Notes: a model not told the origin generated them from the letters alone. A DNA stretch of 60,096 nucleotides from Verrucomicrobiota bacterium (GCA_045046875.1 JASFYY010000006.1:1-60096), one strand, 5' to 3'. Positions 2,817 to 56,108 are shown, counted from the stretch's first letter. Made by a program: numbers and translations.

Positions 2817-4577
2817 ATGTGTGGAATCGCTGGATACTTCAGGCTTGAAGACAAACAAGCGCCGCGACAAGATGCTCGATCTGCTATTGATGCGATGAAC
2901 ATCGCTCAAAAAACCCGTGGGCCGGATCATGCAGACATTTGGGAAAGTCAGAAAGACCCTAGCTCCGGCAACAGTCGCTGCGTGCTTGGCCACACTCGTC
3001 TGTCCATTCTGGATTTGAATGAACGTTCAAACCAGCCCATGGTTCGCAAAAGATGGGCCCTTGCCTTTAATGGGGAAATTTACAATTTCCGAGCAGTCAA
3101 AATAGAGCTGGAAAGCGAAGGAATTAGCTTTGAAACCACTGGCGACACCGAAGTATTATTACAAGCTCTGGAGACCTGGGGAGTAGACAAGACCGTTGAA
3201 AAAATCGCTGGTATGTTTGCCTTTGCTGCTTACGATCAGGAAACCCACACCCTGCATCTGGTTCGTGATCGCATGGGCATCAAACCGCTGTATTATTGTG
3301 TAAGAGACGGCGCAGTTTACTTCGCTTCTTCACCGGCAGCTATCGTAAAAGGAATAGGAACTGACGCTGACTGGAAGCTGAACTGGGATGCATTATATAG
3401 CTATTTCCTGCTCGGAGCCACCAGTGGCTCCGACTCCCTTTTTGAAGGCGTCAAAAAAGTCGATGCAGCAGAAGCTATCAGCTTTCGAAATGACGCATGC
3501 TTGGAACGCAAACGCTATTGGACACCACAACCTCGCCAGGGGGATCTTGCTCAAATTCTAAAAACCGTAGTCGATGAACATCGTGAAGCAGATGTGCCAA
3601 CTGCCCTCTTTCTCAGTGGCGGCGTCGACTCTTCTGTTCTTGCTGCTCTGATGGGAAACGTCGATTGTTTCCACCTGCGCTCGGAAGAAACAGACATGGC
3701 TCGTTACGTAGCCGAAAAAATGGGCTCAGAGCTAACCGTATGTGATCCGCTCAAAGACGTCGACTACGAAGAAATTCTCGAGGATTATGCAAGAACCTCA
3801 GGCGCCCCCAGTGCCAGCTCTCCCATACCCTACCTTGTCTCCAAAAGCATCAGAGCAGCTGGCTACCCGGTCGCTTTCAGCGCCAACGGTGGAGACGAAC
3901 TTTTTCATGGCTACTCTCGCACCCCCTCCCCTGAATTGAACCAGAGCTTCATGCCCTCAAATGGTTACGAAACCCCATCCGTTGATTGCCTCGTCAAACA
4001 AATACGTAGCATTTTCAGAAGTCCCGAAAATTTCTCCCTCCCTGGATCCCCACAAAGCTCGCAGAGTTTCATAGACTTGTTTGAATCCATGGAAAACCGT
4101 TATCACTTGCCCGACTTCCCCAAATCTGCGAGCCACCGTTGGTTGGAACTACAAACCTACGTTTTGCAAGACCTCAATCCGACCCTTGATTATGCCAGTA
4201 TGGCGCATAGCGTTGAAGTTAGAGTCCCCTTCCTCGATCATCGCATCGTCGAAGCCGCTCTCACTGCAGATGCCAACCAACACATCACCGTTGATTACGG
4301 GCGCAAAAGCCCATTGAAAGAACTGCTCGACCAGCATGGATTTCATCCCATCATCTGGGCACGGCAGAAAATGGGATTCAGTCTTGCTCCCGATGCGATC
4401 GCCAAGCTCCAAGAGCGAAGACTACAATCTCTTGGAGAACTTAAAAGAGACGGCTTCCTTGCTGTGGATGCCCGCACCGGGGAAACCTGGCGAGATTTGA
4501 CATACCTGGGATCTGCCGCACAGGCTTTTTTGGCTTGGAAGCGTGTCTGGATCGATACCGGAATCGTAGCACCATGA
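2817..4577 (+). CDS. asnB: Asparagine synthase-like glutamine amidotransferase (sugar amidation)
   Basis: MCGIAG N-terminus, RGPD, HTRLSILDL, FNGEIYNF, LSGGVDSS, EVRVPFLD. Confidence 0.9.
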   Translation: MCGIAGYFRLEDKQAPRQDARSAIDAMNIAQKTRGPDHADIWESQKDPSSGNSRCVLGHTRLSILDLNERSNQPMVRKRWALAFNGEIYNFRAVKIELESEGISFETTGDTEVLLQALETWGVDKTVEKIAGMFAFAAYDQETHTLHLVRDRMGIKPLYYCVRDGAVYFASSPAAIVKGIGTDADWKLNWDALYSYFLLGATSGSDSLFEGVKKVDAAEAISFRNDACLERKRYWTPQPRQGDLAQILKTVVDEHREADVPTALFLSGGVDSSVLAALMGNVDCFHLRSEETDMARYVAEKMGSELTVCDPLKDVDYEEILEDYARTSGAPSASSPIPYLVSKSIRAAGYPVAFSANGGDELFHGYSRTPSPELNQSFMPSNGYETPSVDCLVKQIRSIFRSPENFSLPGSPQSSQSFIDLFESMENRYHLPDFPKSASHRWLELQTYVLQDLNPTLDYASMAHSVEVRVPFLDHRIVEAALTADANQHITVDYGRKSPLKELLDQHGFHPIIWARQKMGFSLAPDAIAKLQERRLQSLGELKRDGFLAVDARTGETWRDLTYLGSAAQAFLAWKRVWIDTGIVAP

Positions 4578-26886: not shown

Positions 26887-27271
26887 GTCCACTAAGGAGC
26901 ACGAAGTTTTAATACAGAGAACTGAACTTTTAACGGATAAACCCCTATTGTCCACTAATGAACATGAAGTTTTAATACAGAGCATTTTTGTCCACTAAGG
27001 GCACTAAGGAACACGAAGGTTTAATACAGATTTTTTGTCCACTAAGGGCACTAAGGAACACGAAGGGTTAATACAGATTTTTTGTCCACTAAGGGCACCA
27101 AGGGGCACGAAGGGTTAATACAGATTTTTTGTCCACGAAGGACACTAAGGAACACGAAGGGTTAATACAGATTTTTTGTCCACTAAGGGCACTAAGGAAC
27201 ACGAAGGGTTAATACAGATTTTTTGTCCACGAAGGGCACTAAGGAACACGAAGGTTAATATAGATTTTTTT
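26887..27271 (+). repeat. Tandem array: six 47-bp units plus two degenerate units
   Basis: gtccac starts at 26990, 27037, 27084, 27131, 27178, 27225 (period 47); consensus gtccactaagggcactaaggaacacgaagggttaatacagatttttt; degenerate copies at 26887 and 26950. Confidence 0.97.
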
Positions 27272-30484: not shown

Positions 30485-31138
30485 TTAATCCCCCGACTTA
30501 AAGTCATCGTAGCTCTTCGCCCCTTCGCTGAGATCCTCCGGCAAAGCCTGTTCCTCATCAAGATCCAGGCAACGAACCTGCTCTCCATCCTGCTCATAAA
30601 CAAAGCCCGACTCAGGGCACGTGGCATGACCATTTTCGTCAAAGCGCAAGAGATGGCCATGACGGCTCATGTAGCCGACCAAGCGCCCGGGAACTCCCAC
30701 TATCAGACCGTAATCCGGCACATCCTTCGCCACGACCGCACCCGCTGCGATAAAGGCATATCGTCCCAAGGTAATCCCACAAACGATCGTGGCATTCGCT
30801 CCTACCGTTGCCCCACGGCGAATAAGCGTCTTTTCATAGAGCCCCCGCCGCACCACCTGCGAGCGAGGATTAGTAACATTGGTCAGCACACAGGACGGCC
30901 CCAGAAAAACATCATCTTCGATAACCGTTCCGGTATAAATCGCCACGTTGTTCTGCACCTTGACATTACTGCCAATGCGAACGCCTCCCGCCACCATGGT
31001 ATTCTGACCAAAATTACAGCCCTTACCTATTTCCGCCCCATCACAAATATGGGAAAAATGCCATATTTTGCTGCCATCGCCAATAACGGCGCCCTCGTCA
31101 ATCACTGCTGTCGGATGTGAATACATAAGATAAATCAT
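30485..31138 (-). CDS. wbpD: Hexapeptide N-acetyltransferase, WbpD/WlbB type
   Basis: HPTAVIDEGA, KIWHFSH, VKVQNNV, FLGPSCVLTNVTNPRS; alternative start 31126. Confidence 0.9.
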   Translation of the reverse strand: MIYLMYSHPTAVIDEGAVIGDGSKIWHFSHICDGAEIGKGCNFGQNTMVAGGVRIGSNVKVQNNVAIYTGTVIEDDVFLGPSCVLTNVTNPRSQVVRRGLYEKTLIRRGATVGANATIVCGITLGRYAFIAAGAVVAKDVPDYGLIVGVPGRLVGYMSRHGHLLRFDENGHATCPESGFVYEQDGEQVRCLDLDEEQALPEDLSEGAKSYDDFKSGD

Positions 31139-31142
31139 TCTC

Positions 31143-31358
31143 GTCCACTAAGGACACTAAGGAACACTAAGTTTTTTTAATATAAATCATTTCCGTCCAC
31201 GAAGGGCACCAAGGAACACTAAGTTTTTTAATATAAAATCCCACCCCATTTTTCTTCTCTTCCTTCGTGCTCTTAGTGTCCTTAGTGGATACCTTCTCCC
31301 TCGTCTCGGCTCGTATCCCTCTTGACCGCCGTAGCCTTGGCGGAGGAGGTTAGTGGAT
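31143..31358. repeat. GxxExxY-associated element with nested 30-bp hairpin (31320-31349)
   Basis: Two forward arms gtccac(t/g)aagg..cac..aaggaacactaag and two reverse arms ending ttagtggat. Confidence 0.9.
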
Positions 31359-34974: not shown

Positions 34975-35270
34975 CCCCCGCAATACCATTACGCTCACAT
35001 CCCACAACTTGTCCGCCAAAGCCTGTCAGGCGACGGAGGATCCCACGCCCCCCAACTCGCCCCCTCCACACCGTGGCGCGGATTGGCAATTTGCCTCGTG
35101 GCGCGGATTGGTAATCCGGCGGATCCCCCGAACCACCCCAAGACCCACGCAATGCCATTACGTCCCACGCCCCCCCAACTCGCCCCTCCACACCGTGGCG
35201 CGGATTGGCAATCCGGCGGATCCCCCGAACCACCCCAAGACCCACGCAATGCCATTACGTCCCACGCCCT
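34975..35270. repeat. Tandem GTGG-type REP doublets (about 97-bp units), REPIN/BIME-like
   Basis: GTGGCGCGGATTGGCAATCCG-type arm at 35073/35098/35195 facing revcomp GTGGGACGTAATGGCATTGCGT. Confidence 0.88.
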
Positions 35271-35321
35271 CCCTTCAAACTCCCCCCTTGCCATTTTCCC
35301 CAATTAGGGTAAAACATCGGC

Positions 35322-43718: not shown

Positions 43719-46700
43719 CTAGCTCATCTCCGCCACATCCATACAGCGCATCAAATGCCGCGCCAAATCCCGGCAATTTTCCTCATACAGCAAACTATGG
43801 TGATCACCAGACGTAGGCAGAATTTCCAATCCATTGCCCGCCACTTGCTGCCAGGTCGAAGGCCCCTGACTCTCCACCATTTCCAGAAAGGAAAGCACCC
43901 GCGCGGCTCTCACCAGATTGCCCCGTTTGATCTGCAGCTTCAAGCGTGAGATAAAAAACTGTTTGCGCTGCTCATACGACTCGGAGGTCACCAAGGTGAT
44001 CCTGCCTGGATAAATCTTGGGCTGATAACGTGCCGAAGCAGTATCCCATATAGCGCGTAAAGTCTGCCCCTGAGGGTAACTCTCCGGCACCGGCGAAGGG
44101 TCATCACCCAATAGCACCTGCCTTTGTCTGGCGGCCTCGGCCTCCTGCCCAAGCGTCCCTGTTGTTCCTGAATCCACCTGCTGATCTCCCGCCTGTTGTG
44201 GAAAAATAGCATCAATGACAATCAAATTAACCTCTTCCCCCATCGCCCTGAGTTGTTGCGCCATTTCAAAAGCAATCACCCCACCCGCCGACCAACCCCC
44301 AATATGATAGAGCCCCTCAGTCTGCACCTCACGCATAGCCGCAATGTAATAACTCGCCATTTCCTCCACCTCCCGCAAAGGAGCCTCGTCACCTTTGAGC
44401 CCTTTGGCTTGCAATCCATAAAAAGGACGATCCTCCCCCATCGCGGATGCCAGTTCGGCATAACAAAGTACATTGCCATCCGATGGGTGAACACAAAAGA
44501 AAGCTGCTTTGTTGCCTGAAGCCTTCAGCGCCACCGCCGCTTGCCAGCCCCCCTCCCATTCCCGGGAAAGAATCAGCTCAGCCTGCAGTGCCGGAGTCGA
44601 CGCCTCCACAAAACTCGCCAATGGCAAGTCCAACCCAAAAACCTCCTTCACCTGGGTGACAATCTCTACCGCTTGCAAAGACGTTCCGCCCAGCTCGAAA
44701 AAGTCGGCATCGGCTTTCATCAAATAATCTCCCTTGAGCACATACTGCCAAATCACCAGGACCTGATCGACCACTTGCTCACGATTAACCTCTATGCTCG
44801 CTTTTGATTCTGTCTGTGACAAAAGTGAACTTTCACCGCCTTTCAATTTTTCTGCCTCAAACCCACCTTCCCCGATCTCCAACACCGTAGGCGCTGCCAC
44901 AGCTTGCAACGGATCCGCAACCATTCGCTGCAACTCCACCCAACATCGCTGTAAGATCCCTTCCACCGTATTTTCATCCACCAAATCCGGATTAAAAGTC
45001 GTCACACAACGAATCCCACCCGGATCAGCATAAAAACTCAGCACCAGGCTGGTGTAAGGGTTCATCCCGTCAATAACCGAATAAATAAACTCCTGACCCT
45101 GATCTTGCTCCGGATCATTTTCTTCCTGAATCAATTGGCAAATCACTGCCGGAGGAGAACAAGACAACTGTGTCTCTTTTCTAAGCAAAGCCGCCAGCTC
45201 CGCCGGAGCGATATCACCATGTCCAATAGCATCAAAAAGCGTCGCGCGTTGGGCTTTCATCAGATCCTGATAAACCTCATCTTTCCCAATTTCAGCACGA
45301 ATAGGCAGCAGGCAAATATAGTTACCCGTTGCTCCACCATCCAAAACCCGGTCCCGGTTGGAAAAAGGAATGTGCACCAAACCCTGCCCCTTGCCGCTGT
45401 CTTTCATCAGAGCGCTCTGCACCGCCGCCAGCAAACCCGCAAACAAGGTCACTCCCGTTTGACGGCAAGTTTGATCCAAGCCTTTTGCCAAATCAGAATC
45501 CAACTTCTGTTTGATGAAATGCCCACGCGGTTCAGCCGAACGCTTCTCACTATCCGTAATTCCCGCAACTGCTGGCAAAGCCAGTTGATCCGCGTCGAGT
45601 CCGCGAAAAGTTCTGGACCAGTAACGCTGTAAGCTAGCCACCCGCTGCGGCGTATTACGCGCACTCTCACGACGAACAAAGTCTTCGTAACTACTGGGCG
45701 CACCGCGGGCCACCTCATTGCCCAATGCAAGCTCTTGATAAACTCCGGTGATCTCCCGAGCCAGGATCAAAGCACAAAAACAATCCATGATGTTATGATC
45801 AATAACCAATTGCACTTGTTTATGATTCTCACCCAGGCAAAACAATGTCGCCTTGAAAAGCGGCCCTTTCTCCAGATCAAACTTCACCCGGGCATGTCGG
45901 CGCATGCTTTCAGTCAAACTCACTTCATCGCTGACCTCCACTCTCTCCAGACTCACTTCGGGCAGCTTCAAAATACAGCCCACATAGTGATCCTCTTGTT
46001 TTTTGAAAACCATTCTCAACACCTCGTGGCGGCCAAACACCACATCCAATGCTTGCTGCAAAACATCCGCATAGAACTCCCCTTCAAATTGAATACGCAG
46101 ATCCAAAGTGTAACTGAACTTTTCATCAGGCCGCAACAAACCATCACGCCTCAAACAATCTTGTTGCAGAAAAGAAAGCGGCACTTGTTTGATGACTTCA
46201 ATTTCCCGGGATGTTTCCTCCCGCACGGAATCCTCCTCCGCCAAATTTGCCACTGATATCACATACTGCCGGTCATGTGTGCTAGTGACTTCGTAGCTCA
46301 ATCCTCTGAAAGTGGCTATGAACGGTAACTGCACATGAATGCCCTCAATCCGCACATCTGAAAGCCCTTCGCCAATTCCAATGCCCGCCGCTTTTAACAC
46401 CGCTTCTTTTTGGGTGAAAATTAAAATAGGTAAAGCCTGTTTGAGAAAATCCCTGTCCTGCTCACAAAAATTTCCGTCCGTAATATACGCTCGAATCTCC
46501 TCCTCCAGTTTTGCCCCGCAACAATCCGTCACCACCTTCGCAGGAAGTGCTCGGATCTTTTCAACATCCACCCCGACCGGCTGCTTGTTTCGCGCAACAC
46601 ACACCAAGTCCTCACTGTGACTGATCGAGAAAAAAGAATCGCCCTCAAGTTGCGCGGCATGAAAATCAACACTCACCGGAGATCCCTCTGAAAACACTTC

Positions 46701-49700
46701 TATCGAATCCAAGGGAACCTGCTGGGGCTGCCCCTCTTTGGCTAACAAATGTTGGGCAAGCAATTTGGTGGCGAGCTTACCCGCAAACTTTTCTTTGCGC
46801 CGCTTGTCGGAGGAAAGCGCAACAATTTCAACGCCTTCTTTTTCAGTGATGATGCTGTTTCTATTATCCTCAGCGTACTGATAGGCTTGAGGCAAAGACA
46901 AGGTCAAAAGGTCGCTATGATGGATCAATAGAGGCACTCCCTGCGGAATAGTGTGGATGCAGAGCGGTTCCCGAATCGAAGTGGGAGAGGTGACAAAACC
47001 CTTCAGAATGATCAAAGCCTCTTCATTCTCATTGACCACAATGATGTTCAGAGTTCGGGCCTTATTGACTTCATCGGTTTTGACAAACTGACAATAAACC
47101 TTTGCTTCACGAGCTTGCGCGCAAGCTTGATAGTCAATCGTACAACGTCCCACTTGTTTGGGCATGAACAAGTGCCGGGTATTGATGCCGAACTGTTTCC
47201 ACCGTGAAGCCGTCTGAAACGCTGCTTCAAGCAATAAGGGCACACGCCCCGTATCACTCAGGATCATTCCCTGTTGAGCCGCCAAACTCATGTCCACATT
47301 CGACGTGACGATATAACCATTATATTGCAACTCATCAAGAGTGGCAAAAGCCCCCCTGAACGAAGATTCCTCACTGTTTTTCAAGTTCAAACGGTGAATG
47401 GAAAAGGGAGTGGCTCGAAGCTCAGAGCTTGATCTCATTGCTGCGAGCAAGTCCAAATCATCCTCTCGAAAACAAGCTGCCTTTTTCCCTACTCCAAGCT
47501 TCAAACTCACAATAGGGCGGGATCCTCCATCCTCCTCCATTTCAAGCAGCACAAAGTCGTTCTGACGGGAAAAATGCAACTGCTGCTGAGTATCCCCGGC
47601 AACACTGATCGGAGATAAAAACTCAATGCTGGAAAATTCCACCAAATCGCCAGCCTCCCTTTGCTCATCAATCACCAATCTAACTATTTCACGCAGCATC
47701 ACGGCTGCCGGAATATATATGGTGCCATAAAAGTGATGCTCTCTCAGTGCGGGAACCCTATCCAAATCAAGCTTAAAAGCTGTCGATATTTTCTGATCGG
47801 GATCTGACAAGCGATACGGTGCAATAGAATTAGCCCCATCAAAGCGGTCCTCTCCTTGATAGCTTGTCATATAAGGGCCTGCCAGTTTCCCTGACGCCAC
47901 AAAACGAGTCGTTCCCCGAGGCGGAGACAGCAACAAGCCGGTCAAAAGCTTCTCAAAAACCTCCCTCCCTTCCTGGGGCGAGATGAATGCAGCTCCACTG
48001 GTTTCCAGAATTTCCTTGATAACACCACGAGAGGCCATACCCACTTCACTCCATGCTGGCCAGGCAATGGAAAGAGCAGGAATACCTCCCTCAAGTGTCC
48101 CATTCAACAAAGCGTTCGCGGCGGCATAATCAGCCTGACCATAGTTCCCCCGATAGGCTGCAATGGATGAAAACTGAACCACCCCGCGAAGATTATCAGT
48201 GTCCAATTTTGATAAAATGTCATCAAGCGACAAAACTTTTGTAGCCATTGTGAGCGCAAACTCCTTAGCGCTTTTTTTAACCAGGTTTGCCGGCACCTCA
48301 ATGCCTGCGGCATGAATGAGAAGCGAGACCCGCTCCTTATGCAAAGCCAGCGCTTGAATGGATTCAGGATCAGTCAGGTCGGCCACGCGGTAAGACACGC
48401 GGTCATCGGGCAATGCTTGAATCCAACTCTCCGTCTCCTGTTTTCGGCCTACCAATATAAACCGGGCAGTCGTCACCTCAATCAAATGCCTCGCGATGCC
48501 AGCGGCAATGCCCCTCGCCCCGCCTGTGATCAATACCAGATCATCTGTTGTGAGCAAATCAGGCAACCTGTCCTCACTGCCAAACAAACCATTTAATGGA
48601 AACAATCTGCCCTGTGTGATACTCCCATCCTTGCGAACATGTTTGCCTGTATCGGGAAGGTCCTCTACACGGCTCAAGATCCGGCGCATTTCCTCTTCAG
48701 AAATACAGTCCCCATCAAAGTGCGCATAAGAAAACCGGATACCCGGAACATCCAACTGCGCGACCTTCAGCATCGCTTCTAGCGCAAAAAAAGCACCGTC
48801 ATAAAAACGGTCTGCCGGGCAGTAGGTCATGACGTGAACATGACTCGGACGCTGCCCGTCCGGCAGTCCTGCCAAAAAAACTATTTTCTGATGCAATTCC
48901 GGCAAAAGCTCCTCTCCGGCGGACCTCATCGAGCTTAATAAAGGACGCATCAAAACCAGCTGGTGCTTATCTCCACTATAAGGCAGCTCCAGTCGATCTA
49001 TCCCAAAATCACCTCCCGTCATTAAGGGTGTTTTCGCAGATAAGGTAGCCGTCTGCACCATCTTATGTTTGTACCAGCCTATTGACGACCCTGTTCCCGC
49101 CGTTTTTTCTTCAGTTGAACTCGAATAACTCTCCGCAACCATTAAGATCTTCTGCACACTGGTTAACTCTCTGAAATTCTCGATTTCCTGAGGAAGGATG
49201 TCACCTCGCAATCGAGAGAGAATCTCAAAAATTTTCAAAGTATCAATGCCAAGATCACGCTCAAATTCCGCATCCTTGTCAATGGCAGCAAGCTCATAAC
49301 CTGAAATTGAGGAAACGGTCTCAAAGACCTGGTCTATCAAGCTCATTTTCTTTTCAGCAGGCTCTGCAACGGCTTTTTTCTTACTCGGCCTGCGATCTTT
49401 GCTCGAAACCGGCGCAGGCTGTCGCTTGATCTCCACCGCTTGCTTCAACTTTCCGGGCAATTGCTCAATCTGCTGAAGCGTATCTGTATCCACTTGATTC
49501 AAAAATACAGTCTGAAATGGTTTATTTTCAAGGATCTGGTCAATCAATCGTGTCAGCGTGCCCTTTGACCCCACCTCGACAAACCGGCGTATCCCATTTT
49601 CATAAGCCGCGTTTATTTGCGAAATAAAATCAACAGGATGATCAATTTGCCGACTCAGCAAACTGATAACGCGCAGCCTGTCATCTTGCCCCATGCTGGC

Positions 49701-52700
49701 TCCGGATTCTCCCCCAACGGGAAAAGACTCACGACTCAAACATGCCAACACCGGTGTTTCACTTTGCTTGAAATCAATCGATTCAAGCTGTTTGCGTATC
49801 GGTTCAACACAGTCGCCAACTAACTTCGAATGAAAAGCCCGCGATACATTCAATGGAAAAGCCTTCATCCCGGCCTGTCTTGCAATTTTCTCAATCGCAT
49901 CAATGGCGCTCTGCTCACCTGAGATCACAGTCTGTCTGTATTCATTCAGATTGGCGCAAGTCGCATACCCATCCACCTGATCGATCAGGCTCTGCGCAAC
50001 TCGCTCTCCCGCTTCAATCGCAATCATCGCCCCCGCTTCAGCCGACCGCGCAGCACTCATCAACTGCCCTCTCAAACAAACCAGGGTGAAGGCATCTTCA
50101 AATCCCAATATCCCAGCAGCATATAAAGCGGCATACTCCCCCAGCGAATGACCTAGAACCAATCCCGGCCGTGCGCCCCCCTGCTGCCTGATCCACTCCA
50201 GCATCACCACCGAGCTTAGAAAAATAGCAGGCTGCGAAACTTCAGTCGATAGCAGACTATCCATCTGCTCCTTTTCAGTTTCAACATCCACCGATGGAAG
50301 CTCAAGCAGTATCGGCGACAACAATGAGCCTGAAATTTCTTGATAAATCTCATCTGCTTTTTTCAATAAATGAGCTACCTCAGGGCAATCCTTGAATTCA
50401 TGCAGCATTCCGGCGAACTGAGCACCTTGACCTGGGAAAACATAGGCCACGTCACTGGTCAATTCGGGAAAAGACAAATAGTTGGCTCTTTCAACATCGA
50501 CTAAAGCCTTGCGTTGATTCCTGGGAGAACTTGAAAGCACCGCATGATAATTAATGCCGCCAAAACCAAAAGAAGAAATCCCCGAAATGATCTCTTCATT
50601 CACGATGGCTTCCGGCCTTTTTGCCACGTGCAATCCTAAATCCTCAAGGCACACCCCCTCGGGAGCTTGTTCAAAGTTAACCTGAGGCGGCACACATCGC
50701 TGGTTGATGGCAAATATGCCTGACAACATACCAACAGCTCCCGCCCCGGAACGCACATGCCCCGTAATCGCCTTACTCCCGCCCAAAACAAGAGGACTTA
50801 ACTTTTTTTGCAGCCGATCCTTGCCAAAAAACTCCGCTACAGTTTTACGTTCCTCGGCATCGCCTACCGGAGTTCCGGTCGCATGACACTCCAAGAAATC
50901 CACATCCAGCGGATCGATACCGCTATTGACATAAGCGTCGTTAAGGCAGCGGGTTTGACCCTCAAAATCAGGCGCCGCAATGCCCTTGCCTGTGCCATCG
51001 TTGGCAGCACCCCATCCTCGAATGAGCGCATAGATCTCATCCCCATTGCGAATCGCATCCTCATAGCGTTTCAATACAAAAAGCGTACCCCCTGCACCGA
51101 TCACAAAACCATCCGCTCTTTCATCAAAAGGAAAAGAACCTTTGCTCGACAAGGCCTGAATGCGTGAAAACCCAATAAATTCCTCTGCCCCGGTACCTGT
51201 GCCTACTCCTCCACTGATAACCACATCGCAACGCCTCTCCTGTAACAAAGTGATCGCATTGCCGATAGCCGCTAAAGAAGAAGAGCAAGCGGCGTCAATG
51301 GCATTGGTCAAACCTTGGAAATCAAACACTGAAGCAAGACGCGAAACTGCCAAACTAGGATTTCCTCCCAAAATCGTATCTGCCGTGATTTCAAACTGGT
51401 TGAACTCCTCTTCGTAATCATCTATCAAGCTCTTCACGCTCTCCGCATCATAGCTACCCTCTTTAATAAGATCATCTAGACGGGCGCGGATTTTTCTCCA
51501 CACTAATTTGTCATACAAATCCACCGAAGCCACCTTGGCGGCACCGATCACTGCTCCCACCCGGTTCTTGGGGAAAGGGCGTTTGTAATAACCCGCATCC
51601 TGCAAAGCCTGCTGGGCACATTTGAGCGTCACAATCTGCAGTTGCGACATCTCATCCGACACACTTGGAGGAATGCGAAAAGCCGTCAAATCCGAGTCCA
51701 CCTCTTCCGGCAAACCTGCAATACCTGAATAACTCGTATCACTTTCATCACTTCCGGGCTCAAGATAAACACTGCGCTCCCAAATCGAGTCCGGCGTATC
51801 CGTAATAAAACAACGCTTGAGCAAAATATTATTAAAATGTTCAGTGACATTATTTGATCCTGGCAAAATAGAACCAATGCCAACAATGGCGATCGGTTCA
51901 AAAGTTCTCTCCTGCTCAATAGAAGGTTCCTGCACCAGCCCCTCATGCAGTTGCTCTATCGTCATAACTTCCAACAACAGGGTGCTAACCGCCCCAGCCA
52001 TGTAACTGCCATCCTCCTCAAATTGCTCACTTCCGACCGCTAACTTCAGCCCTCCTCGATAAAGCCGTTCATAAGCTTTTTTCTTTTCGCCTAGCTCCAA
52101 CTCGGAAGAAAATATTGACCATTCCTTTTCCAGCAAATCCGTCGAATGAGTCGTCACCATCTGGCGCACATTACGATGCACACTTTCCCCGGTGATCACC
52201 GTATCCTCTCCGCTTATAATCGTTTGCCGATAAGCGTCAGGAAGCCCGGTAAATTCAACCGCCTCCACCGTGCTCAAATAAGCGGTGCCCAGCTGCAACG
52301 ACACCATCAAATCTTTCTCCAAACCATAAAAATACAGCAAGCCGGAAAGCAAATCCGCCGCCCGCCGATCATAAATGCCGCCTGCAAAAATCAGGTGCAC
52401 TTTATCCTGTAAGTTGCGATCCCGAATTTCTTCCAACACTCCCTGCCAAGCACTCAGCCCTCCGACATTGGAAGTGTGTCCGCCCGCCTCCTCTCCTTCG
52501 ATAATGAAATTGCGACAGCCCATATCAAACAACACTTTGAACATTGCTCGATTGGGGGCATGAACCGCCACTTCCAGATCCGTTTTGAGCAACCGATTGA
52601 CATGATCCAGTTGCGGCGCTGAGATAACTACGTAAGCGGGCCGGGTTTCTTCAAAAAGTCCGATCAGGGATTCAAGATCCTCGGAGGAAAGAGACAGGGC

Positions 52701-53735
52701 CACAAAATTAACCGCAAAAGGGAAGCCTCTTCCCGCCGTTTCAGTAACTATCTCAACTGATCGCTGAACGGACAAACCTGCCAGTGCGAGACAAGGCAGC
52801 GCACCTTCTTTTGCAACGGCTTCAGCAAAGTCAGGGTATTGAGTGATGTTGGCCATCGCCCCTTGAAAAAAAGGGTAACGACTCCCCACCTTGAGCGCAG
52901 CAGGACTGGCTTCTGGAAAACAGCTTTGGTTAACAATTTCCCTAGGGGATAAATTGTAGAGCTTTAAATACTCGAGTGTTTTATCCCGCCATTTATGATC
53001 CCACAGATCACTCTTTTCCGAAGCCCAATACCCCTGCTCAAAACTGGTTTTTAAAAACGATCCGGGTTCTTTCTGTTGTTGCTGCCGGTAGGCGATCGCT
53101 TCAGGGGTTCCTCCGGCAAAGGCCAGTCTGACAATGTTATTGCCTCCCAACGAAAATCTCACAGTTTTGTCTCTTGCTCCAGAACTGAACTGATCTGCCG
53201 ATAAGACAATCCCCGAAACGCCCAAGGCCAGGTAGGTTTGAAAAAGAGCGAATCCCGTCGCACCATGAATGTAAAACGGATGACAACTTTCAGACTTCAA
53301 CAGCTGATAGATAATGAAAGCCGACGACTCCTTACTTGGGCCCGGAGCCTCAAAACTCCTCCCTATCAGCAAACTACACGAAAGCCGGTTGGCAGCTTCC
53401 AGGTCAGCACGGTTCGCCACCTCTATAGCTATGCCCGCATTATGCTCTGGTAAAGAGCCTCCTTTAAGATCAATCAGATGACTGATAATGACGGGCAAAT
53501 GATCGAGCTGATGAGCCGCCAACGCATCAATCAAAGAAAGATCATAGATCCGCAACACTGGATTTTTTTCATTCGGATGAATGGATAATTTATCCAAATC
53601 CCCCCGATCAAAAACATTCCAAATCCTCCCAGCTTGAGCATGCTCGCAAGGTTGATGCTGCCCTTCACTCGAAAGACCTATGACATCATCAAGAAGAACA
53701 GGAGGAAATTGTTTAGATGGATTCATTTTCTTCAT
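43719..53735 (-). CDS. Type I PKS/NRPS-like megasynthase: (flavin ER/NMO-like)x2-KS-AT-ACP*-KR-DH-PPTase-C-PCP-TE
   Basis: EGEEAGGH/FAGGI (FMN TIM barrel); DAACSSS, ECHATGT, ITGH (KS); GHSLGE, RAFHS (AT); LGIDTL (ACP); TGGARGI, YAAAN (KR); HHFYGTIYIP (DH); SISHS, VGVDVE, KEAVLK (PPTase); RHEVLR, FDLEKGPL, DHNIMD (C); FFELGGTSL (PCP); GWSAG, GDH (TE). Confidence 0.9.
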   Translation of the reverse strand: MKKMNPSKQFPPVLLDDVIGLSSEGQHQPCEHAQAGRIWNVFDRGDLDKLSIHPNEKNPVLRIYDLSLIDALAAHQLDHLPVIISHLIDLKGGSLPEHNAGIAIEVANRADLEAANRLSCSLLIGRSFEAPGPSKESSAFIIYQLLKSESCHPFYIHGATGFALFQTYLALGVSGIVLSADQFSSGARDKTVRFSLGGNNIVRLAFAGGTPEAIAYRQQQQKEPGSFLKTSFEQGYWASEKSDLWDHKWRDKTLEYLKLYNLSPREIVNQSCFPEASPAALKVGSRYPFFQGAMANITQYPDFAEAVAKEGALPCLALAGLSVQRSVEIVTETAGRGFPFAVNFVALSLSSEDLESLIGLFEETRPAYVVISAPQLDHVNRLLKTDLEVAVHAPNRAMFKVLFDMGCRNFIIEGEEAGGHTSNVGGLSAWQGVLEEIRDRNLQDKVHLIFAGGIYDRRAADLLSGLLYFYGLEKDLMVSLQLGTAYLSTVEAVEFTGLPDAYRQTIISGEDTVITGESVHRNVRQMVTTHSTDLLEKEWSIFSSELELGEKKKAYERLYRGGLKLAVGSEQFEEDGSYMAGAVSTLLLEVMTIEQLHEGLVQEPSIEQERTFEPIAIVGIGSILPGSNNVTEHFNNILLKRCFITDTPDSIWERSVYLEPGSDESDTSYSGIAGLPEEVDSDLTAFRIPPSVSDEMSQLQIVTLKCAQQALQDAGYYKRPFPKNRVGAVIGAAKVASVDLYDKLVWRKIRARLDDLIKEGSYDAESVKSLIDDYEEEFNQFEITADTILGGNPSLAVSRLASVFDFQGLTNAIDAACSSSLAAIGNAITLLQERRCDVVISGGVGTGTGAEEFIGFSRIQALSSKGSFPFDERADGFVIGAGGTLFVLKRYEDAIRNGDEIYALIRGWGAANDGTGKGIAAPDFEGQTRCLNDAYVNSGIDPLDVDFLECHATGTPVGDAEERKTVAEFFGKDRLQKKLSPLVLGGSKAITGHVRSGAGAVGMLSGIFAINQRCVPPQVNFEQAPEGVCLEDLGLHVAKRPEAIVNEEIISGISSFGFGGINYHAVLSSSPRNQRKALVDVERANYLSFPELTSDVAYVFPGQGAQFAGMLHEFKDCPEVAHLLKKADEIYQEISGSLLSPILLELPSVDVETEKEQMDSLLSTEVSQPAIFLSSVVMLEWIRQQGGARPGLVLGHSLGEYAALYAAGILGFEDAFTLVCLRGQLMSAARSAEAGAMIAIEAGERVAQSLIDQVDGYATCANLNEYRQTVISGEQSAIDAIEKIARQAGMKAFPLNVSRAFHSKLVGDCVEPIRKQLESIDFKQSETPVLACLSRESFPVGGESGASMGQDDRLRVISLLSRQIDHPVDFISQINAAYENGIRRFVEVGSKGTLTRLIDQILENKPFQTVFLNQVDTDTLQQIEQLPGKLKQAVEIKRQPAPVSSKDRRPSKKKAVAEPAEKKMSLIDQVFETVSSISGYELAAIDKDAEFERDLGIDTLKIFEILSRLRGDILPQEIENFRELTSVQKILMVAESYSSSTEEKTAGTGSSIGWYKHKMVQTATLSAKTPLMTGGDFGIDRLELPYSGDKHQLVLMRPLLSSMRSAGEELLPELHQKIVFLAGLPDGQRPSHVHVMTYCPADRFYDGAFFALEAMLKVAQLDVPGIRFSYAHFDGDCISEEEMRRILSRVEDLPDTGKHVRKDGSITQGRLFPLNGLFGSEDRLPDLLTTDDLVLITGGARGIAAGIARHLIEVTTARFILVGRKQETESWIQALPDDRVSYRVADLTDPESIQALALHKERVSLLIHAAGIEVPANLVKKSAKEFALTMATKVLSLDDILSKLDTDNLRGVVQFSSIAAYRGNYGQADYAAANALLNGTLEGGIPALSIAWPAWSEVGMASRGVIKEILETSGAAFISPQEGREVFEKLLTGLLLSPPRGTTRFVASGKLAGPYMTSYQGEDRFDGANSIAPYRLSDPDQKISTAFKLDLDRVPALREHHFYGTIYIPAAVMLREIVRLVIDEQREAGDLVEFSSIEFLSPISVAGDTQQQLHFSRQNDFVLLEMEEDGGSRPIVSLKLGVGKKAACFREDDLDLLAAMRSSSELRATPFSIHRLNLKNSEESSFRGAFATLDELQYNGYIVTSNVDMSLAAQQGMILSDTGRVPLLLEAAFQTASRWKQFGINTRHLFMPKQVGRCTIDYQACAQAREAKVYCQFVKTDEVNKARTLNIIVVNENEEALIILKGFVTSPTSIREPLCIHTIPQGVPLLIHHSDLLTLSLPQAYQYAEDNRNSIITEKEGVEIVALSSDKRRKEKFAGKLATKLLAQHLLAKEGQPQQVPLDSIEVFSEGSPVSVDFHAAQLEGDSFFSISHSEDLVCVARNKQPVGVDVEKIRALPAKVVTDCCGAKLEEEIRAYITDGNFCEQDRDFLKQALPILIFTQKEAVLKAAGIGIGEGLSDVRIEGIHVQLPFIATFRGLSYEVTSTHDRQYVISVANLAEEDSVREETSREIEVIKQVPLSFLQQDCLRRDGLLRPDEKFSYTLDLRIQFEGEFYADVLQQALDVVFGRHEVLRMVFKKQEDHYVGCILKLPEVSLERVEVSDEVSLTESMRRHARVKFDLEKGPLFKATLFCLGENHKQVQLVIDHNIMDCFCALILAREITGVYQELALGNEVARGAPSSYEDFVRRESARNTPQRVASLQRYWSRTFRGLDADQLALPAVAGITDSEKRSAEPRGHFIKQKLDSDLAKGLDQTCRQTGVTLFAGLLAAVQSALMKDSGKGQGLVHIPFSNRDRVLDGGATGNYICLLPIRAEIGKDEVYQDLMKAQRATLFDAIGHGDIAPAELAALLRKETQLSCSPPAVICQLIQEENDPEQDQGQEFIYSVIDGMNPYTSLVLSFYADPGGIRCVTTFNPDLVDENTVEGILQRCWVELQRMVADPLQAVAAPTVLEIGEGGFEAEKLKGGESSLLSQTESKASIEVNREQVVDQVLVIWQYVLKGDYLMKADADFFELGGTSLQAVEIVTQVKEVFGLDLPLASFVEASTPALQAELILSREWEGGWQAAVALKASGNKAAFFCVHPSDGNVLCYAELASAMGEDRPFYGLQAKGLKGDEAPLREVEEMASYYIAAMREVQTEGLYHIGGWSAGGVIAFEMAQQLRAMGEEVNLIVIDAIFPQQAGDQQVDSGTTGTLGQEAEAARQRQVLLGDDPSPVPESYPQGQTLRAIWDTASARYQPKIYPGRITLVTSESYEQRKQFFISRLKLQIKRGNLVRAARVLSFLEMVESQGPSTWQQVAGNGLEILPTSGDHHSLLYEENCRDLARHLMRCMDVAEMS

Positions 53736-54567
53736 GCTCCTCTGCCATCCGCCTAGCCCGGTGCTGTTCCAGAATCACCCCATAATTACCAGGATTCCTG
53801 CGCGCAACCATGTCAAAAAAACGAGCATCCTCACCTATCAATACCCGGGTCGCCTTATTTTTAATTCCCTCGATGATCACATCAGCAGCTTCCGCTGCTG
53901 TGGTTCTCACCACTTTCTCTAGCTGCTCACTCAGTTGATCTAAACTCGTCCTATCCTGACCCCCTCCGCTTAGGTGGGTGTTTCTCACTAAATTGGTTTT
54001 TACCCCTCCCGGGAATACCACCGTCACAGTGACCGAAGTATCACGTAACTCTTGCCTGATAGCTTCACTAAACCCCCGCACCGCAAACTTGCTCGTTGAA
54101 TAAGCCGTCTGCAGCGCTTTTGCGGTTAATCCATAAACACTGGAAACATTAACCAAACTAGCTTCGGCTTGTTTTAATAAATGAGGAATGAACGCTTTGC
54201 TTCCATTCACTACTCCCCATAAATTAACATTCATCACTCTTTCAAAATCATCATATTCCAGTTCCTCTATGCCCAAAGGCTCCATCACCATGCCGGCATT
54301 GTTGATCACCAAATCAACCGAACCGTATTGATTTAGCACCGTCTCGGCAAACTCATGCACCGCCCCACGATTGGCCACATCAAAGCAGCCAACGCAGACC
54401 TCCCCGCCTTGCTCACGGATTTCACGGCCGGTCTGACTTAAGGCATCTTCATCTATATCGGCTATGGCCACCTTTGCCCCCTCCCCAGCCAATCGAAACG
54501 CCAAAGATCGACCGATCCCCGAACCGGCACCTGTAATCACTGCTATTTTGTTTTCAAAAGACTTCAT
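53713..54567 (-). CDS. Short-chain dehydrogenase/reductase, overlapping the PKS start
   Basis: TGAGSGIG, NNAG, NVSS, YSTSK. Confidence 0.92.
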   Translation of the reverse strand: MKSFENKIAVITGAGSGIGRSLAFRLAGEGAKVAIADIDEDALSQTGREIREQGGEVCVGCFDVANRGAVHEFAETVLNQYGSVDLVINNAGMVMEPLGIEELEYDDFERVMNVNLWGVVNGSKAFIPHLLKQAEASLVNVSSVYGLTAKALQTAYSTSKFAVRGFSEAIRQELRDTSVTVTVVFPGGVKTNLVRNTHLSGGGQDRTSLDQLSEQLEKVVRTTAAEAADVIIEGIKNKATRVLIGEDARFFDMVARRNPGNYGVILEQHRARRMAEEHEENESI

Positions 54568-54704
54568 GCTCTCAAGCTTCTGGAAGATTGCCTCAAAACA
54601 GCCCTTCCATCAAGCCCGTATAACAACACTTCCCCGCCAACAGCTGCAGGACAAAAAAGTTAGCCATTGGCTATTGAAAGCTAGCTTATCACACATCAAC
54701 ATCA

Positions 54705-55158
54705 TTTCGCTCGTAGCCTCCGGCTGTCTACGCTACGCTCCGGCTCAGGGCTGGTAATAAAACCGATTTAACCCCAGCGCTTCGCACTGGGCTATCACAT
54801 TTTGTCCTTACAGGACAGTTTGCTTTCATCTCTTTTGCACCAACGGCGCTCAATGGCATAGCCCGAACCTCTTTTGCACCAACGGTGCTCAATGGCATAA
54901 CCCGGACCTCTTTTGCACCAACGGTGCTCAATGGCATAACCCGGACCTCTTTTGCACCAACGGTGCTCAATGGCATAACCTGGGGACCTCTTTTGCACCA
55001 ACGGTGCTCAATGGCATAACCTGGGGACCTCTTTTGCACCAACGGTGCTCAATGGCATAACCCGGGGACCCTCTTTTGCACCAACGGTGCTCAATGATAT
55101 AGCCCAGTGCGAAGCGCTGGGTAAAAAATCCAATTCTTCCAGCCCTGCAAGGGCGAAA
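54705..55158. repeat. REP-like element: 7 tandem 39-42-bp hairpin units enclosed by nested inverted repeats
   Basis: gcaccaacggtgc-type hairpins at 54837, 54876, 54915, 54954, 54995, 55036, 55078; perfect 23-bp IR 54773-54795/55099-55121; outer cagggctgg/ccagccctg. Confidence 0.95.
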
Positions 55159-55211
55159 CTCATAGCGGTCAGCAGCTTAACTATTTTGTCTTACCCCCCC
55201 GCCAAGCCAGC

Positions 55212-56108
55212 TCAAAAACAAATCCCCTCCATTCCCTCTGCCATACTCTGCCAGTCATTTTTTGCCGCTAGTCCATAAATACGCACATCTTCCTCCTTAG
55301 CTCTTTTTTGCGCCCCTTTCAGCAAAACCTCTGATCGTTGCAAAATGCCACTCAACACCCACCGCTTCTGTTGCGGGGTTAACTCCGCCTTCAGCATCAA
55401 ATCCAGCAATGCCATCACCCGGAAACGATCCATCGCAGGCAGCGTAAAAGACAACTGATCCCCATGCCCGCCATGACGAGTCACCAAGGGCCCCGCGTCC
55501 CCCTTCACCAACCCCACCGGCTCATTCAGCGCCAATCGCAACCACAACTCATAGTCCTCACATACCCGGTAACGCTCATCAAAACCACCCAGGTGCTGCC
55601 ACAGCTTTTGCGACATCATCACACAAGACGGACTGATACAGCACACCCGCACGCAGTTCTCAAAAATCACCCCCTCGGGCTGCGCTTGATTGGCTTTTTT
55701 ATTAAAGGGTCGACCATTTCTCACCCACTGCTCTTCACATTGGGAAATTTCAATGCCCGCGTGGCCAGCGTGCCAGTCCACCTGCTGTTGCAACTTCTCC
55801 ACCTCCCACACATCATCCGAATCCAAAAAAGCCAGCCAATCTGATTTCACCATCTGCGCTCCGGCGTTCCTCGCGCCCGCCGGCCCCACATTTTTAGTCA
55901 GAGACAGCCAGTGATGCCCGGCGCCCTCCACCAGATCCCTCACTTCAGGCAAGTCTAGCTGTGAAGCATCATCCACCACCACCAAGTCAAAATCCCGAAA
56001 GCTCTGAGCCAGTACACTCTTCACTGCGCGTAGCAACATCTCCGGACGATCCCGCACTGGAATCACCACCGTCACTCTCCCAACTGAGATCTCTTGCGCC
56101 ATCATCAC
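55212..56108 (-). CDS. Glycosyltransferase family 2
   Basis: VVIPVRDR, VVVDDAS, GARNAG, FLDSDD, GGFDE, CEDYELW. Confidence 0.9.
   Translation of the reverse strand: MMMAQEISVGRVTVVIPVRDRPEMLLRAVKSVLAQSFRDFDLVVVDDASQLDLPEVRDLVEGAGHHWLSLTKNVGPAGARNAGAQMVKSDWLAFLDSDDVWEVEKLQQQVDWHAGHAGIEISQCEEQWVRNGRPFNKKANQAQPEGVIFENCVRVCCISPSCVMMSQKLWQHLGGFDERYRVCEDYELWLRLALNEPVGLVKGDAGPLVTRHGGHGDQLSFTLPAMDRFRVMALLDLMLKAELTPQQKRWVLSGILQRSEVLLKGAQKRAKEEDVRIYGLAAKNDWQSMAEGMEGICF

Follow-up and report, generated by a model that had tools for sequence, protein, structure and literature searches.

How a single gene could encode the assembly, priming and release of a lipid is the question raised by a 60,096-nucleotide stretch of DNA from a marine Verrucomicrobiota bacterium (GCA_045046875.1 JASFYY010000006.1:1-60096; hereafter, the window). 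The stretch contains a megasynthase gene whose product combines two enoyl reductase-like barrels (ER0 and ER) with ketosynthase (KS), acyltransferase (AT) and acyl carrier protein (ACP) domains as well as ketoreductase (KR), dehydratase (DH), phosphopantetheinyl transferase (PPTase), condensation (C), thiolation (T) and thioesterase (TE) domains, and lacks an adenylation (A) domain (Table 1). The original prediction, made from the sequence of the window, proposed a synthase that works iteratively, primes itself and transfers the acyl chain through its C domain, a description that our comparisons support, and overlooked what is the most unusual feature of the protein, the replacement of Ser by Thr in the internal ACP. 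We consider it reasonably probable that this gene belongs to a branch, also represented in Desulfobacterales, Chloroflexi and Asgard/Bathyarchaeia, that places phosphopantetheine on Thr rather than Ser by means of dedicated, often embedded PPTases, and that the A-less C-T-TE tail represents a new form of lipid offloading.

Serine is regarded as the invariable site of phosphopantetheinylation, and exchanging it for Thr is a standard means of inactivating an ACP. In an alignment of the internal ACP to solved ACPs, Thr1499 falls on the phosphopantetheine-bearing Ser. Counted among similarity-ranked proteins, with loci found via Thr-containing patterns left out, Thr occupies this site in 19 of the 20 ACPs of the megasynthase family (17 proteins; one Ser), in 66 of 68 ACPs of ER-KS relatives (28 proteins; two Ser) and in none of 1415 modular carriers (0/632 from modular polyketide synthases (PKS) and 0/783 from nonribosomal peptide synthetases (NRPS)); the C-terminal T domains of the family carry Ser in 10 of 10 cases. 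When a sequence containing Ser as well as Thr ACPs served as the query, Thr was found in 91 of 93 ACPs from named archaea, in none of 127 from Shewanella PfaA and in 114 of 184 from matches without a taxon name. Three genomes encode the Thr by different codons (ACT, ACG and ACC), and comparison of the internal ACP, which is among the most conserved domains of the megasynthase, with its counterpart in a Verrucomicrobia metagenome-assembled genome (MAG; L002) revealed 11 changes, all of them synonymous. The recurrence of Thr across the family, the synonymous codons and purifying selection rule out that the Thr reflects decay or a sequencing error.

Some Thr synthases carry 3-6 tandem Thr ACPs, and such arrays are common. 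Among 356 proteins scanned, 117 had only Thr in their detected carriers and 76 of these 117 carry a cis PPTase with both motifs, although these counts take in long proteins from motif-selected loci, include L007, which duplicates P0013, and do not exclude carriers in trans. Ser and Thr interchange in the same sequence context (P0012, P0048 and P0372), and in the KS phylogeny (44 of 63 KS rows were used in one of the trees; approximately unbiased (AU) tests were run under LG+G4 on 28 of 42 rows), the Thr synthases form one group, with two state changes required. Furthermore, in family members with the order KS-AT-ACP(Thr)-KR-PPTase-C-A-T-TE, the acyl donor has to be the Thr ACP because their T domain would hold an amino acid. 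Taken together, these patterns make it quite likely that the internal Thr-ACP is a working elongation carrier, and the simplest reading is that the PPTases of Thr synthases modify Thr.

No Thr-linked phosphopantetheine site was found in the open-access literature, a search that left most subscription journals uncovered, so that absence from print is not established. The word "threonine" does not occur in the available portions of PMC3098273 and PMC13291983, and in those of PMC8436480, it appears only in connection with kinases and phosphatases. The accessible parts of PMC6731297, including a search of its supplement, contain nothing on a Thr site, and the same holds for those of PMC9385802, where "threonine" was not searched. 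Myxobacterial Pfa2 synthases may also have Thr-type motifs.

The megasynthase open reading frame (ORF) is a real gene under selection, and every domain named in the original prediction is present. The domain order is borne out by Pfam, profile and fold comparisons and the alignment to solved ACPs, with Pfam matches running, in residues, NMO 286-603, KS 613-1022, AT 1098-1404, KR 1734-1897, DH 1977-2056, ACPS 2386-2495, C 2518-2952, PP-binding 2992-3054 and TE 3080-3189; the DH match is below the cut-off, and the DH call rests on profile and fold. ER, KS, AT, KR, DH, PPTase, C, T and TE all have their catalytic residues, which are conserved family-wide. A full-length copy in L002 is 96% identical over residues 1-3335, a single contig of the vent-metagenome run X5 spans 44059-54631 with 463 differences and no gaps, and the GC content along the gene is 0.47-0.55; the possibility of a misassembly or chimera is ruled out on these grounds. 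Among 61 related genomes, an orthologue is present in 4 of the 6 of the genus and in none of the 55 other relatives searched, the L002 copy and the genus count coming from the same collection and so not being independent. Against L002, dN/dS is 0-0.32 in all 12 regions, indicative of purifying selection, with 0.19 for C, 0.05 for T and 0.09 for TE. The second ATG, at 53726, is the likelier start, giving 3335 aa, because GAGGAG precedes it by 10 nt but the first ATG by only 1 nt, and because the database gene call is also 3335 aa long.

Table 1. Coordinates of the megasynthase, its domains and the overlapping reductase gene, counted from the first letter of the window
Feature	Position	Strand	Residues (aa)	Characteristics and evidence
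Megasynthase ORF	43719..53735	-	3338 in total	stop-free frame; ER0-ER-KS-AT-ACP(Thr)-KR-DH-PPTase-C-T-TE
First barrel (ER0), degenerate FabK/NMO-like	52911..53735	-	1-275	no catalytic His; dN/dS 0.16
FabK-type FMN enoyl reductase (ER)	51921..52889	-	283-605	His420; profile and Foldseek
Ketosynthase	50511..51902	-	612-1075	Cys817/His951/His993; Pfam, catalytic residues
Acyltransferase	49506..50453	-	1095-1410	Ser1197; Pfam, catalytic residue
Internal ACP	49131..49358	-	1460-1535	Thr1499 (codon 49239-49241) in place of the phosphopantetheine-bearing Ser
Ketoreductase with upstream region	47886..49103	-	1730-1950 (catalytic domain); 1545-1725 (upstream region)	Tyr1870; Pfam, residue
PKS-type double-hotdog dehydratase	46986..47843	-	1965-2250	His2000 and Glu2170; profile, AlphaFold fold
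Embedded Sfp-type PPTase	46236..46958	-	2260-2500	motifs intact; Pfam, family profile, AlphaFold model
Condensation domain	44871..46208	-	2510-2955	His2647/Asp2651; Pfam, residues; no adenylation domain after it
Thiolation (PCP-like) domain	44556..44783	-	2985-3060	Ser3019; Pfam, residue
Thioesterase	43719..44513	-	3075-3338	Ser3149/Asp3175/His3312-3313; Pfam, residues
Classical SDR	53713..54567	-	284 in total	overlaps the megasynthase start

The protein had been predicted to begin with two flavin mononucleotide (FMN) barrels, the first of them degenerate. The second is closest to FabK (E 2e-33; Foldseek FabK rank 1, PfaD rank 42), with His420 kept in 22 of the 22 family rows covering the position. 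The first lacks the catalytic His, and its assignment as a FabK/NMO-like barrel has moderate support: the family profile matches an ArsA-like protein over profile positions 86-593, the ER1-versus-ER2 profile match is weak (P 0.016), and NMO-type look-alikes at 0.89 are a lead only. The AT motif is presumably of the malonyl type, and the region upstream of the KR is probably its structural subdomain. The DH matches a PKS DH by profile (E 6e-14), and its AF2 model (pLDDT 85) has PKS structures and their DH domains as best Foldseek matches; its His2000 is paired with the family-invariant Glu2170, where Asp is usual, and FabZ uses such a His/Glu pair. Besides AcpS, the embedded PPTase is the only PPTase detected in the host genome, G000. 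Pfam and domain searches found no chain length factor (CLF) and no FabA-type dehydratase/isomerase domain in the megasynthase, so that a methylene-interrupted polyunsaturated fatty acid (PUFA) is unlikely and a reduced chain likelier. The best NCBIfam matches of the megasynthase include PfaA, well under the cut-off (475 of 1010 bits).

In the tail, C and T are separated by ~35 residues with no A domain in between, an arrangement that departs from the canonical C-A-T module of PKS-NRPS hybrids. The catalytic second His and the Asp of the C domain are kept in all 23 family C domains aligned over the motif. In a tree from which four near-duplicate C domains and one fragment were dropped, the A-less C domains form a clade of their own (SH-aLRT 100, 11 rows), apart from the A-linked C domains of the family and from ordinary NRPS C domains; a C-domain profile search was swamped by multimodular NRPS.

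The family, compiled from the 16 best non-self similarity matches and loci from further searches based on Thr-containing patterns, is a KS clade (SH-aLRT 99) with four layouts. Members of the first, in Riflebacteria and MAGs without a taxon name, have the order ER0-ER-KS-AT-ACP-KR-DH-PPTase without C. The second, KS-AT-ACP-KR-PPTase-C-A-T-TE without ER or DH, is found in Planctomycetota, Aminicenantes and a betaproteobacterium; P0015-P0017 are relatives with C-A-T-TE. The third carries the A-less C-T-TE on one chain and comprises the window protein, L002, P0003 (from the Solemya pervernicosa symbiont, 52%), P0004, P0009, P0011, P0014 and L013, along with a relative, L003, in which the TE is on a separate gene. 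The fourth consists of six chains (P0005-8, P0010 and P0013) that stop after C and bear neither T nor TE. The A-less C-T-TE form marks a small family of patchy distribution across Verrucomicrobiota and Gammaproteobacteria, and the scattered taxonomy suggests horizontal spread; a plasmid search yielded distant matches only (28-34% identity among the best 60 of 1600). The family is present in chemosynthetic clam symbionts and vent metagenomes.

At four loci, the C-ending member is followed by a convergent sulfotransferase and a T gene (L005:19528-22117, L007:18738-21296, L017:18755-21797 and L041:8416-11004), the latter with an A-subdomain remnant, a T domain and, usually, a Cys-type TE, an arrangement that we take to be reminiscent of CurM/Ols sulfotransferase-TE termination. 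Downstream of a C-less member, L018:13751-16810 encodes a 1019-aa AMP-binding/carrier/HMG-CoA-reductase fusion. Common neighbours at the C-less loci L018, L019, L020, L021 and L024 are an NTP_transf_5 nucleotidyltransferase (four loci), a PEP-utiliser/PPDK-like protein (four) and a B12 radical SAM protein (two).

With confidence slightly above even odds, we read the whole as an iterative reducing type I fatty acid synthase (FAS)/PKS for secondary lipids with a built-in offloading module. The embedded PPTase would prime the two carriers, the internal ACP at Thr1499 among them; AT would load malonyl, KS would extend the chain, and KR, the His/Glu DH and the FabK-type ER would reduce it in every cycle. 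These five domains are sufficient for full reduction, and by analogy with ArsA, together with the residues observed, the product would be a long, mostly saturated acyl chain; that it is mainly reduced we consider likely. Once complete, the chain would be moved off the ACP by the A-less C domain and onto an acceptor, either an amine or an alcohol, on, or passed through, T, and TE would release an amide or ester lipid. Given that neither a type III PKS nor an NRPS-type A domain over the cut-off was found in G000 (94.7% complete), offloading onto an amine or alcohol is the most likely role of C, and for the tail as a whole, the balance tilts slightly towards amide or ester formation. The overlapping short-chain dehydrogenase/reductase (SDR) could provide a genus-specific accessory redox step.

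Several observations weigh against this interpretation. Support for a single Thr clade is moderate (SH-aLRT 83, 88 and 92 in three trees). According to the accessible portions of PMC3340395 and PMC13343975, Escherichia coli ACP S36T can be neither phosphopantetheinylated nor acylated, hence the use of Thr would require a special PPTase or ACP, and no sequence signature of a Thr-specialised form of either was found. As to the tail, G000 (94.7% complete) is without an NRPS-type A domain over the cut-off (0 of 5 matches), which leaves the loading of T unexplained; in three of the five closest C domains, the first His of the motif is replaced by Asp; and C diverges fastest, with 44% identity to L003 versus 59-84% for the other domains. 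In addition, the KS is not sister to that of ArsA (AU p 2e-8), which makes the ArsA product only an analogy.

The behaviour of S36T, in the portions of those two reports cited above, would also fit a structural, never modified Thr ACP, with the C-terminal Ser-bearing T as the sole carrier, as in FAS that end in ACP-TE; the window protein does possess this second carrier, and a separate T or T-TE gene lies near the C-ending genes at L005, L007, L017 and L041. We consider such a dead ACP improbable, given the 76 proteins with a cis PPTase and Thr carriers only (again, trans carriers are not excluded), the frequent tandem Thr arrays, the two carriers required by the C-A-T-TE members and the position of the ACP among the most conserved domains. 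Another alternative keeps the same core and makes the tail an acyl shuttle, in which C either hands the chain on to the thiol of T or plays a structural part, with TE freeing a long-chain or hydroxy fatty acid that the SDR may modify. The lack of an A domain in the protein, and of one over the cut-off in the genome, agrees with this, as do the conservation under selection of the T Ser and the TE triad and, in the part of PMC13492342 available, the LovB-like terminal C of fungi, which, although indispensable, is proposed to act without forming amides. However, a simple ACP-TE would be enough for hydrolysis, the catalytic second His and Asp are retained throughout the aligned C domains of the family, and the chains of six members stop after C, lacking both T and TE; we therefore regard a shuttle as unlikely, though less so than a dead ACP.

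An enzyme like those of enediyne PKS (PKSE) or PUFA synthases, making rare use of its ER and yielding a polyene or a polyunsaturated chain, appears highly improbable. The order KS-AT-ACP-KR-DH-PPTase matches that of PKSE, the KS, AT, KR and DH of SgcE align, a sister position of SgcE is not rejected (AU p 0.37, with one long-branch reference), and iterative programming is not readable from sequence. On the other side stand the intact cis FabK ER with its invariant His420, the absence of CLF and FabA domains from the protein, the lack of an E2, E3 or E10 match in G000 and of any cassette gene in 35 family loci, and the rejection of a PfaA/HglE sisterhood (AU p 5e-11). The polyunsaturated option of the original prediction is therefore not upheld, the ER being FabK-like rather than PfaD-like. 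The preferred reading remains the reducing synthase with its own offloading tail.

The predicted SDR overlapping the megasynthase start was recovered. The genomes with an SDR orthologue coincide with those that carry the megasynthase (4 of 61 related genomes), and the SDR is not adjacent to the synthase in family loci outside the genus; it travels with the megasynthase within this genus only. Synteny between the window, L003 and L004 includes a GT2 gene (55212-56108); as 10 of the 61 genomes have this gene and 6 of those 10 lack the synthase, we rejected it as part of the unit and treat it as a flanking gene. Upstream of the SDR, 54645-55198 is a multicopy REP-like element (70-100 BLAST matches in G000) with a 39-bp unit repeated 6.7 times, and an X5 contig joins 54631 to 55197 without this element. 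Additional tandem repeats, of 47, 52 and 97 bp, are located at 26953-27270, 31126-31237 and 35097-35273, and 202-34854 is a large surface-polysaccharide cluster encoding nucleotide-sugar epimerases/dehydratases, methyltransferases, two asparagine-synthase-like amidotransferases and glycosyltransferases.

Elsewhere in G000, contig C87 (L001:10386-19525) encodes a second PKS, KS-AT-DH-MT-ER-KR-ACP with a Ser ACP, followed by a stand-alone C domain; this PKS is without a PPTase domain of its own, and the sole Sfp-type PPTase detected in G000 is the one embedded in the megasynthase. Also encoded in G000 are AcpS and an ACP that stands alone, along with genes of the FabA/FabZ family and matches to stand-alone ketosynthases. 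With this separate set at hand, the megasynthase probably serves accessory rather than primary lipid synthesis.

If a selected, clade-wide Thr carrier is real, it would extend the serine rule, carriers that seem dead by motif would be active, and the Thr carrier with its PPTase could represent an orthogonal pair; the priming of the related archaeal megasynthases would be affected as well. Because its single chain unites one PPTase with two carriers, one bearing Thr and the other Ser, the gene is a ready-made test of Thr priming, and as a lipid synthase that primes itself, brings its own offloading tail and is encoded by one gene, it would be easy to express. The occurrence of the family in clam symbionts and vent metagenomes suggests that its product may be an unknown lipid class.

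Among known systems, the megasynthase appears to fit the broad class of secondary-lipid (pfa-like) iterative type I FAS/PKS: its KS lies inside the pfa-like superclade (SH-aLRT 100 versus modular PKS), the ACP precedes the KR and the PPTase is linked. The embedded PPTase motif is of the hShxH type, given in the accessible text of PMC3098273 for types M-T of Shulse and Allen, whose descriptions there contain no C-T-TE tail. PfaA and HglE share the KS superclade and flavin ER chemistry, and those examined have Ser ACPs. PUFA synthases and the pfa-PKS-NRPS hybrids (zeamine, fabclavine, megapolipeptin and chitinimine) are multi-gene systems, mostly with KS-CLF and FabA-type DH, and none of the six hybrid clades in section 7 of PMC13291983 (a 2026 survey) is single-chain like the megasynthase. 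Membership among PUFA synthases (Pfa types A, B and D; Hgl type F) was rejected on the AU test of PfaA/HglE sisterhood given above and the missing CLF and FabA domains. The nearest KS relatives are uncharacterised Type R/S-like synthases of Desulfobacterales, Chloroflexi, Acidobacteria and Nonomuraea, an assignment inferred from taxa, together with the Asgard/Bathyarchaeia megasynthases; they have Thr ACPs and, in many cases, N-terminal ER barrels and a C-terminal PPTase, as here, but differ in a second KS-like domain, tandem ACPs and the lack of C-T-TE. Thirty-one proteins labelled Asgard archaea, Bathyarchaeia or "archaeon" (P0371-P0487, P0048, P0071 and P0090) are megasynthases of ~3300-3800 aa when whole, with the order ER-KS-AT-KS-like-ACPn-KR-DH-PPTase and Thr at 91 of 93 ACP sites.

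Enediyne PKSE are iterative single modules, KS-AT-ACP-KR-DH with a terminal PPTase, and the megasynthase matches this order, as the original prediction had pointed out. SgcE (L033), with a 31% identical KS and alignable KS, AT, KR and DH, is without ER barrels and C-T-TE and has Ser at the probable ACP site, whereas the megasynthase has a cis FabK ER; the SgcE KS falls outside the family in all three trees, and of the enediyne cassette, G000 holds only weak E4/E5 matches (E 1e-21 and 3e-6), on other contigs. By its ER and the missing cassette, the megasynthase thus does not appear to be a PKSE; the KS phylogeny that had been proposed as a check discards PfaA/HglE as sister and leaves SgcE, a single long-branch reference, undecided. 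For the tail, a fungal N-acyl amide synthase whose C domain acylates a free amine was reportedly described by Hai and Tang in 2018. Fungal PKS-C enzymes differ from the megasynthase in an unrelated modular-type KS, another domain order, no known embedded PPTase, no known T-TE and a Ser ACP. As iterative reducing PKS with a terminal A-less C domain, LovB and ClaE are nonetheless functional analogues of the tail (PMC13492342, in the part available).

The likeness to ArsA/ArsD (Type P), compared through the Beijerinckia indica cluster L027 rather than the Azotobacter protein itself, lies in a single tandem FabK-like barrels-KS-AT-ACP-KR chain accompanied by a dedicated PPTase, which makes ArsA/ArsD, by analogy, a nearer architectural model than PKSE or PUFA synthases. 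In L027, the tandem-barrel-KS-AT-ACP-KR protein has Ser ACPs and is followed by two type III PKS-like genes and a PPTase; Azotobacter vinelandii ArsA makes long fatty acids for ArsB/C, according to the available portions of PMC4824345 and PMC3098273. The megasynthase differs in its fused DH and PPTase, the Thr ACP and a C-T-TE tail in place of the two type III PKS, of which there is no match in G000 or the 35 family loci; ArsA-type membership was rejected on this absence and the KS sisterhood test. As the original prediction had it, the A-less C-T-TE architecture matches no characterised system in the open-access literature, with absence from print not established. The megasynthase therefore appears to be an uncharacterised variant among secondary-lipid synthases, with a core like that of ArsA/ArsD, yet not a member of that group.

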